From: Escherichia coli
Lineage (GTDB): Bacteria > Pseudomonadota > Gammaproteobacteria > Enterobacterales > Enterobacteriaceae
Reading direction: 5' to 3' (one strand)
Assembly: GCF_003334255.1 (NCBI RefSeq)
Contig: NZ_QOWU01000043.1
Length of the DNA: 46,580 nt
The stretch's first letter is position 1. Every line of letters starts with the position of its first letter. Under the pieces are notes generated by a model that did no database searches, was not told where the DNA came from, and worked only from the letters and a program-made list of their open reading frames with translations. Below, piece by piece: positions 44,928-46,580 of the stretch. A program made the position numbers and the translations under genes.

Positions 44928-45053
44928 ATGTCTGCACCTGCACTGCCTGATGTCAGAACAGTATTTTGATGAATTGCCAAGGTTACAATGGCACAAATAC
45001 GGCACAGGAGGAAACGTGGTGTATTTAAATATGGGGTAACTCTTTGATTTTAA

Positions 45054-45099
45054 TGGTGCCGATAATAGGAGTCGAACCTACGACCTTCGCATTACGAAT
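45054..45099 (-). other. 3' 46-nt fragment of tRNA-Thr (thrW-like, anticodon loop through CCA): att-site remnant marking a genomic island boundary
   Basis: Reverse complement reads ATTCGTAATGCGAAGGTCGTAGGTTCGACTCCTATTATCGGCACCA, matching the 3' part of E. coli tRNA-Thr(CGU) from recall; no acceptor-stem 5' partner upstream, so not an intact tRNA. Confidence 0.8.
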
Positions 45100-45319
45100 C
45101 ATAAGAATCCGCTTCTAATTCAAAGTATTACCCCATCAACACTGCGCTCACACGTCCCACCACATCAAAACATGTAAAGCCTTGCAAGCCATTGTGAGGC
45201 CTTATGTGTCTCAGTTTTGTCCCACTACGACCTGCACAGAAAATAAGAAAATAGCGGTGATATCAAACAGTACAGAAGTCTTTTTTCTTTCAAATGGAGA
45301 AACTGATTAACCCGTTTAA

Positions 45320-45547
45320 TTGTACTCCTCATGGGTAATCAGCAGTCCTCAGAGTAATGGAATGGCAGAAAGGTTCGTGAAAACGATGAAGGAAGACTAC
45401 ATCGCGTTCATGCCGAAACCGAATATAAGAACGGCATTGCATAATCTTGCAGTGGCGATCGAACATTACAATGAAAACCATCCGCACAGTGCGTTGGGTT
45501 ATCGCTCTCCGCGAGAATATCGACGTCAGCGGGTAACGTTAACTTAA
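45320..45547 (+). mobile_element. C-terminal remnant of a DDE (rve integrase-core) transposase, IS3-family-like
   Basis: 75-codon frame with no ATG start, ending ...[19 protein letters not shown], the characteristic C-terminal motif of IS3-type OrfB transposases; N-terminal portion absent. Confidence 0.65.
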
Positions 45548-45588
45548 GATACACCCCCTGTCTGGAAATAAGGGGGCAAGAACAATGA

Positions 45589-46341
45589 TCAGATTCCCTG
45601 GTGAGTAAGAATTTTACTTTCTGAACTCCTCTGAGAGTATTGACTTGGAGAAACACCAAAATAACGTCTAAATACATAAGTAAAGTATGAGACACTGGCA
45701 TAACCACAGACCTTAGCTACTTTACTAATAGGATAACAACGAGTGCTGAGTAAATATTCAGCCATTTGCATCCTCTCATCAAGTATGATCTTACTGAATG
45801 ATACCCCCTCTTCTTTCAATTTCCTCTTTAGTAAACTTTCGCTGAGATATAATCTTGATGATATATCCTTAAGATGCCATGGTGCAGATAAATCCGTATG
45901 AATAATCGTTTTAACTTTAGCCCCTGTGCTTTTCAAACATCCAAACAGAAATACTCCAAATTGTTTTTCAGAAGAAAATGCAGAGAGACATGTAAAAGCA
46001 ATAGACTCATCAAAAATTTCTATATATTCAGCACAGTGATTAGCCCAACTAATTAATCCTTTAATTAAACTGAAGTCAGCAAAGTTTATTTTTAAATAAG
46101 ATGGATATTCCCTACAATCAGAAATATCCCTTAAGTTATTAGCTTTCAAATAGCGACTAATAAACTCAGCGCCAAAATCCGCCACTATCACTCTTTCAGG
46201 ATATGTCAGGAAAAAATCTCTATAGCTAGAGTCGACAAGTACAGATAAACCTCTATCCAGAAACACACTCTCTTTTCCGAAATAAACATCAAAGGACTCC
46301 AAAATCAATATAACTGAACATGTAGTTGCCATATCATCCAC
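45589..46341 (-). CDS. AraC-family transcriptional regulator, Rns/CfaD/AggR-like
   Basis: 250-aa ORF with C-terminal double-HTH AraC domain (ISKVAKVCGYASVSYFTYVFRRYFGVSPSQY); visibly AT-rich, unlike the flanking core genes. Confidence 0.8.
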   Translation of the reverse strand: MDDMATTCSVILILESFDVYFGKESVFLDRGLSVLVDSSYRDFFLTYPERVIVADFGAEFISRYLKANNLRDISDCREYPSYLKINFADFSLIKGLISWANHCAEYIEIFDESIAFTCLSAFSSEKQFGVFLFGCLKSTGAKVKTIIHTDLSAPWHLKDISSRLYLSESLLKRKLKEEGVSFSKIILDERMQMAEYLLSTRCYPISKVAKVCGYASVSYFTYVFRRYFGVSPSQYSQRSSESKILTHQGI

Positions 46342-46580
46342 CCAATTTAACTGAAACCAGGATGAAGTATATGCATATAAAGTTCACTTTGCCAAACTTC
46401 AGTATAAAAAACCACATAAAAAATAGGGTGTGATAAAAAATACCGTAAAAATAAAGCAAAGGATTATAAATTCCGTTACAGTTACAAATGATACTAAAGA
46501 AACGGTAATGACTCCAACTTATTGATAGTGTTTTATGTTCAGATAATGCCCGATGACTTTGTCATGCAGCTCCACCGATT

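Follow-up and report, generated by a model that had tools for sequence, protein, structure and literature searches.

A probable attR junction left by an Sp1/CP-933H-type lambdoid prophage in Escherichia coli thrW, with a candidate patE orthologue

We analysed a stretch of 46,580 nucleotides of Escherichia coli DNA (assembly GCF_003334255.1, contig NZ_QOWU01000043.1; here called the window), and conclude with high confidence that its last part is attR, the integrase-distal junction of an Sp1/CP-933H-type lambdoid prophage in the 3' part of thrW, carrying a patE module. The junction should be read as this prophage end, and the AraC-family gene inside it should be annotated as patE, i.e. a prophage-borne activator of glutamate-dependent acid resistance, rather than a virulence regulator of fimbriae. 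The locus is genuine but unremarkable; patE and this type of prophage are already known, and nothing in it is new in kind.

The anatomy of the junction could be read directly. Positions 45054..45099 (minus strand) are an exact copy (46/46) of nucleotides 31-76 of the 76-nt thrW tRNA-Thr(CGU), with the thrW genes of strains Sakai and G1/2 as references, and the match extends no further upstream. Judged as a sequence match, a 46-mer identity to thrW lies far beyond what chance would produce. The original prediction had taken this copy for the direct-repeat end of an element integrated at thrW, and we agree; in K-12 the identical 46-mer stands at the end of CP4-6, and in Sakai at the boundary of Sp1 and Sp2. 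ARAGORN detected no complete tRNA in the window, and an Rfam scan at gathering thresholds matched no RNA family in the junction/regulator region. The only Rfam match in the window, IS009 at 38498..38697, is away from the thrW junction.

On the chromosomal side, the window shows 99.9% identity to K-12, which ends exactly at 45099; K-12 then has intF of CP4-6, so that the content beyond the repeat differs from that of K-12, as had been claimed. This side includes a K-12-type yagP remnant, an ORF of 136 codons (44517..44927, plus strand) that K-12 annotates as a 411-nt yagP adjoining paoD. Within this ORF, the C-terminal LysR substrate-binding part is confined to 44589..44927 (113 codons): the intact yagP of Sakai is homologous from 44589 onward, a profile search gave LysR C-terminal matches (YafC-like, E 4e-8), and PGAP annotates the equivalent of this part as an N-terminally truncated LysR pseudogene. 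The first 24 codons of the ORF belong to the start of another gene, which overlaps with the stop of paoD. The adjoining segment, 44928..45053, is native host DNA from downstream of thrW, because strain E-ge-1 has the empty attB, in the order paoD, yagP remnant, intact thrW, proA, and the equivalent of this segment stands there directly between the yagP remnant and the intact thrW.

Directly inside the repeat, 45100..45225 constitutes the terminal segment of an Sp1/CP-933H-type prophage; together with the repeat it is 98.3% identical to the Sakai Sp1/Sp2 boundary (L006 15646..15474). There follows a lineage-specific filler of ∼111 nt (45226..45337), common to G1/2 and E2 and seen as a gap in alignments to Sakai and to phages; at this place Sakai carries another 377 nt of IS remnant, while G1/2 is continuous at 100%. 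The prophage Sp1 of Sakai is ordered thrW, int, cI/cro, tail fibres, pinE, GIY-YIG gene, AraC gene, IS remnant and 46-nt repeat, and the succession of repeat, 126-nt terminal segment, IS remnant and gene is common to Sp1 and the window. The closest genome, G1/2, is 100% identical over 44400..46503, and its repeat is separated from an intact thrW by just one 41-kb lambdoid prophage, the integrase of which adjoins thrW; no further thrW copy was found in G1/2. An intact thrW and a tyrosine integrase were seen at the other junction in both G1/2 and O157:H7, and for the DNA studied here that junction lies outside the window, beyond an IS1 element (see below). The lack of an integrase beside the repeat, which had been pointed out before, is real but no anomaly, because the window holds the integrase-distal prophage end (the G1/2 integrase is ∼41 kb away).

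The filler is followed by the C-terminal remnant of an IS2-like (IS3-family) transposase lacking any N-terminal part (45338..45547, plus strand). The corresponding ORF, 45320..45547, matched only positions 224-290 of the 301-position IS2 TnpB profile (NCBIfam; E 5.5e-28) as well as the C-terminal end of an IS3-family model. PGAP calls the equivalent of 45338..45547 an 'integrase core domain' pseudogene with a truncated N-terminus, and Sakai labels the remnant as a repeat_region, 'ISEc48 Family: IS3 partial'. Our assignment used the presence of a partial DDE/rve domain without the N-terminus, and upholds the start-less DDE transposase remnant of the original prediction. Together with the regulator gene, the remnant forms a 1.17-kb module (45334..46503) that is found at 98.6-99.0% DNA identity in the phages mEp332, PhiR70_1 and ev099, and the regulator copies of viable lambdoid phages (97% identity) are located between the tail-fibre genes and attP. 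The 'decayed IS' of the original prediction thus did not decay in this chromosome, and the remnant travels with the regulator. A thrW-type attP, which had been expected in the viable patE phages, was ruled out: mEp332 and PhiR70_1, the two phages examined at their ends, have an attP of the lambda type and showed no thrW identity. The integrases of PhiR70_1 and G1/2 are unrelated (20% identity over 159 aa, E 0.005). Because phages with a different attachment site carry the module, we regard it as mosaic cargo that is independent of the integration system.

The regulator gene encodes an intact AraC-family protein of 247 aa (45589..46332, minus strand). The ORF was thus rightly recognized earlier, but as a 250-aa version starting from GTG at 46341, whereas every reference annotation uses ATG at 46332. 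Pfam matches (HTH_18 at residues 161-238, E 1.5e-15; HTH_AraC at 147-186 and 204-235) revealed the C-terminal double helix-turn-helix typical of the AraC/XylS family. The GC content falls from ∼0.58-0.63 in paoC/paoD to 0.31-0.38 across the regulator, in agreement with the AT-rich DNA noted before. The protein is 100% identical to WP_001556423.1 of G1/2 and, over 247/247 residues, 98.4% identical to ECs_0287 of the Sakai prophage Sp1, with which it shares a 90% cluster. Four substitutions separate it from the latter: E29D, S32L, S40Y and R156H (Sakai residue, then window residue; numbering follows the 250-aa alignment). From position, family and annotation, we infer that ECs_0287 is Z0321, the PatE gene on OI-8/CP-933H of E. 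coli O157:H7 (PMC10877973; PMC2907692). By sequence, the window regulator is then most readily taken for the PatE orthologue of a CP-933H/Sp1 prophage. The patE gene occurs in 658 of the 5426 complete E. coli genomes (∼12%); it is accessory, not a conserved core gene at this position, which leaves the original prediction standing on this point, and it is not specific to O157.

In O157:H7, the genes gadB, gadC, gadE and hdeAB are activated by PatE, whose site of action in the hdeA promoter lies between -132 and -45 (PMC10877973). The published PatE targets, which include host genes identified from microarray and gel-shift data, belong to acid resistance and the LEE and not to fimbriae (PMC10877973). 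Expression of Z0321 is RpoS-dependent (PMC2907692), and ECs0287 is induced when cells pass into stationary phase (PMC2241611).

Upstream of the regulator gene, 171 bp are retained (46333..46503, minus strand) that are identical to G1/2 up to 46503. They contain one sigma-70-like match, TTGGCA-18-TATACT at 46395..46366, from a consensus scan only; the promoter scan yielded fewer sites than shuffled controls (3 vs 4.9). The last 77 nt of the window (46504..46580, minus strand), missed by the original prediction, are the IRR end of an IS1 element, with 76/77 identity to IS1C of K-12 from 46504; the window ends inside this element, whose insAB would read toward the regulator gene. G1/2 is uninterrupted past 46503 (continuation AATTCCTTAG... 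/ AATTCCTTAGAAAACC...), and the IS1 junction at 46503/46504 was found in no complete E. coli genome. An IS1 upstream of the gene was seen in other strains. WCHEC020031 shows a simple IS1 insertion, flanked by an 8-bp target duplication and followed by further prophage DNA; E2 and WY517-2 have unrelated DNA beyond the IS1 (a corA region and an rclA region). The claim that cargo continues past the window edge holds in relatives, while the window itself runs into IS1. Given the IS1-linked rearrangements at the same spot in E2 and WY517-2, the prophage in this genome may have undergone rearrangement or partial deletion.

The AT-rich 320 bp upstream of patE contain at least six independent IS1 sites in ∼122 of the 658 patE-bearing complete genomes, and this stretch is a recurrent IS1 target. 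The element has one orientation in 119 genomes, and a mirrored query revealed the other orientation in three genomes, at one site; an orientation bias was rejected, as the first, all-one-way count was an ascertainment artefact of the query, and the events (5 to 1) are not significant. IS1 upstream may alter expression of the regulator. We consider it rather unlikely that such insertions are selected because they relieve silencing of patE or re-wire it, and so tune acid resistance in commensal or multidrug-resistant lineages; alternatively, they are neutral hits in AT-rich DNA.

The regulator had originally been assigned to the Rns/CfaD/AggR type. According to this explanation, a virulence regulator of this class would be cargo of a non-phage island and control a fimbrial or surface-structure operon beyond the window edge. 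The gene is indeed AT-rich and horizontally acquired, and a distant similarity exists: structures of Rns, CsvR and ToxT in the PDB match the regulator at E 1e-13 to 1e-16, and CfaD aligns at 27.8% identity (78.6 bits) with the N-terminus outside the alignment. However, pairwise BLASTP against CfaD, YdeO, GadW, GadX, AppY and EnvY gave better, full-length matches, including the N-terminus, to YdeO (34.7%, 144 bits), GadW (33.1%, 141 bits) and AppY (28.4%, 114 bits). NCBIfam ranked YdeO first and then GadX, the GadX DNA-binding domain scored E 4.5e-24 among PDB sequences as compared with ∼1e-15 for Rns, and the best named match of the Rns kind in a plasmid tblastn was cfaD, at 28% identity and E 6e-7. 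By these four comparisons, the Rns/AggR class was rejected in favour of the YdeO/GadW/AppY group. All NCBIfam scores fell below the equivalog cutoffs (146.7 vs 348 bits for YdeO; 110.6 vs 500 for GadX), and the regulator is a distinct paralogue, an orthologue of neither YdeO nor GadX. In all relatives inspected, moreover, no fimbrial or adhesin operon stands beside the regulator, whose neighbours are phage genes (the GIY-YIG gene, pinE, tail fibres) or IS elements. Together with the published PatE targets, acid-resistance and LEE genes (PMC10877973), this makes a regulator of fimbriae or other surface structures highly improbable. The ecp operon of the window is a core operon under its own regulator, EcpR, at a distance of ∼10 kb.

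Two further explanations accept the phage origin of the regulator. One is that an IS1-mediated deletion or rearrangement removed the prophage and stranded the regulator and the IS remnant, possibly as a silent relic. The end of the window in IS1 at 46504 would fit such an event, as would the unrelated DNA beyond IS1 in E2 and WY517-2; yet the IS1 of WCHEC020031 left the prophage in place, the ORF is undamaged and does not differ from the one in the complete G1/2 prophage, and loss of the prophage alone would not abolish function of the regulator. We therefore consider an orphaned regulator possible, but not the likely state of this locus. The other explanation is that the regulator mainly serves the phage, in lysogeny control, superinfection or tail-fibre switching, instead of host acid resistance. 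Its 97% identity in viable lambdoid phages, beside the tail-fibre/invertase region, would be consistent with such a role. Conversely, the gene occupies a dispensable b-region position, is AT-rich and belongs to a mosaic module with an IS scar; host targets of PatE were published from microarray and gel-shift experiments (PMC10877973), and its relatives YdeO, GadW, GadX and AppY all regulate the AR2 system of the host (bioRxiv 10.1101/2022.02.28.482378). A service mainly to the phage is thus very unlikely.

Returning to the reading of the region as attR of an Sp1/CP-933H-type prophage, we envisage the following course for integration and for the function of the regulator in this strain. A tyrosine integrase would have recombined within the 46-nt identity segment of thrW, and integration would have restored thrW to its full length at the far end, next to the integrase. 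The displaced 46-nt copy of the thrW 3' end would then have been left beside the yagP remnant and the DNA that originally followed thrW. The AT-rich accessory module of IS2-like remnant and patE orthologue lies just inside attR, where lambda has its b region, on the far side of the tail-fibre genes. By analogy with the O157:H7 protein, the regulator would depend on RpoS for its synthesis in stationary phase, bind AT-rich promoter DNA with its C-terminal double helix-turn-helix domain and activate hdeAB, gadE and gadBC, and the lysogen would gain acid tolerance. IS1 inserted later, 171 bp upstream of the gene. Phages can thus carry this acid-tolerance regulator into commensal and clinical lineages, as patE occurs both in ∼12% of the complete E. 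coli genomes and in viable lambdoid phages whose integration module differs.

The locus can be compared with several known systems. The right end of CP4-6 in K-12 shares paoC, paoD, the yagP remnant and the 46-nt repeat with the window, at 99.9% identity up to the same base; inside the repeat, however, K-12 carries intF and CP4-6 genes, whereas the window has an Sp1-type prophage end. In the viable lambdoid phages mEp332, PhiR70_1 and ev099 the module likewise lies between tail-fibre genes and attP, but mEp332 and PhiR70_1 differ in their lambda-type attP without thrW identity. As for the protein, Rns, CfaD and AggR of ETEC and EAEC resemble it in being AraC-family proteins of ∼250-265 aa from AT-rich mobile DNA with an alignable DNA-binding domain, yet they are plasmid-borne and fimbrial, unlike this prophage-borne regulator without an adjacent fimbrial operon. 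The AR2 regulators YdeO, GadW, GadX and AppY share the N-terminal 'CSVI.I..SFD' start, the double helix-turn-helix and full-length homology, although the identity to YdeO, GadW and AppY is only ∼30-35% (AppY, 28.4%) and the scores stay below equivalog cutoffs. Like the window regulator, AppY lies past the tail-fibre genes in a terminal part of a lambdoid prophage, the cryptic DLP12. Finally, the PatE locus of O157:H7 differs from the window in that the P4-like Sp2/CP-933I separates the prophage end from an intact yagP, whereas the end in the window abuts a K-12-type yagP remnant, the IS remnant is shorter and IS1 lies 171 bp upstream; in both, the gene is situated at the integrase-distal end of a lambdoid prophage at thrW, with the flanking IS remnant, the 126-nt terminal segment and the 46-nt repeat.

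An island junction at thrW had been proposed for the right end of the window, and the 46-nt repeat found there, together with an empty site in a related strain, bears this out. A thrW 3' fragment lies at 45054..45099 on the minus strand (reverse complement ATTCGTAATGCGAAGGTCGTAGGTTCGACTCCTATTATCGGCACCA); all 46 positions are identical to nt 31-76 of the 76-nt thrW tRNA-Thr(CGU) of both E. coli O157:H7 Sakai and the closest reference genome, G1/2, confirming the predicted copy. The identity stops there, the next upstream base being mismatched, and ARAGORN found no complete tRNA in the window, so that the copy is a tRNA fragment. 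In the empty-site strain E-ge-1, the gene order is paoC, paoD, yagP remnant, intact thrW, proA, proB, and its match to the window spans 44900 to 45099, ending there. Thus, 44928..45053 represents native DNA downstream of thrW, and all sequence to the right of 45099 is inserted. K-12 likewise matches (99.9%) up to 45099; beyond it K-12 carries intF and the remainder of the cryptic prophage CP4-6, so the content at thrW differs from that of K-12, as anticipated.

On the core side, the K-12-type yagP ORF (44517..44927) is a chimera. The 24 codons at its start (MPAPVVLILAAGRGERFLASGGNTHK) overlap the paoD stop and have no equivalent in the intact yagP of Sakai (299 aa), homology to which starts only at 44589. 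Its glycine-rich start appears to resemble the N-terminus of a MobA/MocA-type nucleotidyltransferase; such a resemblance would suggest that an old deletion joined the 3' third of yagP to a gene lying downstream of paoD. The only Rfam gathering-level match in the window, IS009 (RF02111; 38498..38697, minus strand, 202 bits), lies between yagU and ykgJ/paoA and is unrelated to the thrW junction.

G1/2 is 100% identical to window positions 44400..46503. Rightward it carries a frameshifted transposase, a GIY-YIG gene and pinE, then tail, head, terminase, lysis, replication, repressor and recombination genes, and at its far end a tyrosine integrase directly adjoining intact thrW, followed by proA. 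Within this 64-kb stretch the 46-mer occurs just twice, in thrW and in the fragment, and the ~41 kb in between therefore make up a single lambdoid prophage. Likewise, Sp1, the lambdoid prophage at thrW in Sakai, has the same right end as the G1/2 prophage and the window. Its order is thrW, int, cI, cro, cII, O/P remnants, tail fibres, pinE, GIY-YIG gene, ECs_0287, 'ISEc48 partial' and the 46-mer, and its end matches window 45053..45225 at 98.3% and 45337..46503 at 98.8%. The missing integrase had been read as a sign of an unusual island; both prophages place this gene at the opposite end, beside thrW, and its absence next to the repeat is what is expected at an integrase-distal end. Both the kind of prophage whose attR end forms this locus and the regulator that it carries are already known.

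The integration behaviour of tRNA-targeting tyrosine integrases is well established, and combined with the anatomy of the locus it indicates the most likely route of integration. The phage attP would contain the last 46 nt of thrW, and recombination inside this identity would restore an intact thrW beside the integrase, and the displaced host 3' copy would remain at the far junction. Comparison of the empty site in E-ge-1 with occupied sites shows just this arrangement, with thrW restored on the integrase side and the displaced copy on the far side. In Sakai, the P4-like element Sp2 starts directly after the 46-mer. The core-side match at its right end (28516..28996 of the Sakai stretch; window 44589..45070) reaches 45070, only ~17 nt into the thrW repeat, and no exact copy of this 17-mer was found at the right end of Sp2. 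Judged by these sequences, the repeat used by Sp2 seems to be imperfect and far shorter than the 46 nt of the lambdoid prophage.

The regulator is encoded by an intact minus-strand ORF at 45589..46332 with one HTH_18 and two HTH_AraC Pfam matches. The original prediction was right in calling an intact AraC-family gene, but its 250-aa product assumed a GTG start at 46341, whereas reference annotations use the ATG at 46332 (247 aa). The gene is AT-rich as described, GC dropping from ~0.6 in paoC/paoD to 0.31-0.38 across it. Its assignment to the Rns/CfaD/AggR type had to be rejected. The best NCBIfam match is YdeO (E 8.8e-43), with GadX at E 7.3e-32, both below the equivalog cutoff; the best PDB match is the GadX DNA-binding domain (E 4.5e-24), compared with ~1e-15 to 1e-16 for Rns and CsvR. 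In BLASTP, YdeO (34.7% identity, 144 bits) and GadW (33.1%, 141 bits) align over the full length, followed by AppY (28.4%, 114 bits), GadX (106 bits) and CfaD (27.8%, 78.6 bits, N-terminus unaligned). Since YdeO, GadX, GadW and AppY outscore Rns and CfaD, the Rns/AggR label reflects a distant family resemblance only, and the similarity ranking supports the putative functional class of the regulator.

The window protein is 100% identical to that of G1/2 and differs at 4 of 247 residues (98.4% identity) from that of Sakai ECs_0287, which is annotated 'transcription regulator' and is the only AraC-family gene of Sp1. Sp1 is the Sakai counterpart of CP-933H in EDL933. The entry for Z0321, in O-island 8, reads 'putative regulator (prophage CP-933H)' (PMC2907692), and z0321, located on this O-island in EDL933, is the gene for the acid-resistance regulator PatE (PMC10877973). 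From the identity to the sole AraC-family gene of Sp1, the equivalence of the two prophages and the assignment of z0321 to PatE, we infer that the window gene is a patE orthologue, with ECs_0287 linked to Z0321 by position and annotation. The gene is present in 658 of 5426 complete E. coli genomes (95-100% identity), nearly always as a single chromosomal copy, and hence is accessory rather than core; it is not confined to O157. A direct junction to the yagP remnant as in the window occurs in 109 to 129 genomes, and proteins of exactly this sequence are common in public data.

Next to the regulator gene, the plus-strand ORF 45320..45547 aligns to the 301-position IS2 TnpB profile solely at positions 224-290 (E 5.5e-28), and also to the C-terminal end of an IS3-family model. 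It is therefore an IS2-like transposase tail devoid of its N-terminal part, and PGAP annotates the equivalent of 45338..45547 as a truncated pseudogene, in agreement with the predicted start-less remnant. The decayed IS does not mark an unusual island or local decay, as the same remnant occurs in the viable lambdoid phages mEp332 and PhiR70_1: a 1.17-kb module (45334..46503) comprising remnant and regulator gene shows 98.6-99.0% DNA identity in both. Their regulator proteins are 97.2% and 97.6% identical to that of the window, and that of phage ev099 is 96.8% identical. Both mEp332 and PhiR70_1 have a lambda-type attP without thrW identity, and the integrases of PhiR70_1 and G1/2 are unrelated. 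The remnant is thus an old scar that moves with the gene as mosaic phage cargo. The gene lies between the tail-fibre/invertase region and att, i.e. in the lambda b-region position. A filler of ~111 nt (45226..45337) is common to G1/2 and the E. coli genome E2 and is missing from Sakai Sp1 and the phages, which carry a longer IS remnant at this place.

An IS1 end, overlooked previously, takes up the final 77 nt of the window (46504..46580, minus strand), with 76/77 identity to K-12 IS1C. It starts 171 bp upstream of the regulator ATG, and insAB would read toward the regulator gene. G1/2 is uninterrupted beyond the 46503-equivalent, and no complete genome carries IS1 at the exact site 46503/46504. 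Insertions in the same orientation are found at ~46538 (approximate) in strain 98206, at 46629 in WY517-2 and FCI54/55, at 46759 in WCHEC020031 and many others (with an 8-bp target duplication, the prophage continuing) and at 46823 in E2, H5/H6, D1 and others. An apparent bias to one orientation throughout was a query artefact, as a mirrored query gave three genomes with opposite-orientation IS1 at one further site. Overall, at least six independent insertions fall within ~320 bp upstream of patE, in ~122 of the 658 patE-positive complete genomes; orientation by events is 5 to 1, which is not significant. For sites 46629 and 46823, the far flank was read in WY517-2 and E2, respectively, and is unrelated DNA in both, pointing to IS1-mediated rearrangement. 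IS1 prefers AT-rich targets, and this preference is the default explanation for its recurrence upstream of patE; an effect on patE regulation is possible. One sigma-70-like match (46395..46366) is left between IS1 and the ATG; it is a consensus match only, and the promoter scan gave this region no higher score than shuffled sequence. The left edge of the window lies in a REP-like palindromic repeat (1..90), and the right edge falls exactly 77 nt inside IS1. Short-read assembly with k = 77 would be expected to break a contig at repeats in this way; such a break would explain why the cargo appeared to continue past the edge.

In O157:H7, patE is RpoS-dependent (as Z0321; PMC2907692) and induced on stationary-phase entry (as ECs0287; PMC2241611). 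PatE switches on gadB, gadC, gadE and hdeAB, acting at the hdeA promoter between -132 and -45, and several LEE genes are less expressed under PatE (PMC10877973). By analogy with this literature, we expect that the window gene would confer the same stationary-phase rise in acid resistance. Lambda_ev203, 1H12, 2E9 and other lambda-like phages encode a paralogue of 243 aa that shares 52% identity with the window regulator. Its gene occupies another moron site, with the Q antiterminator region on one side and the holin gene on the other (3501..4232 of the Lambda_ev203 stretch); lambdoid phages thus appear to have captured YdeO/PatE-like regulators more than once. PatE and PsrB are regarded as prophage counterparts of YdeO, GadX, GadW and AppY in glutamate-dependent acid resistance (AR2; bioRxiv 10.1101/2022.02.28.482378). 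In the cryptic prophage DLP12, AppY itself occupies the analogous spot, past the tfa genes and close to where the prophage ends.
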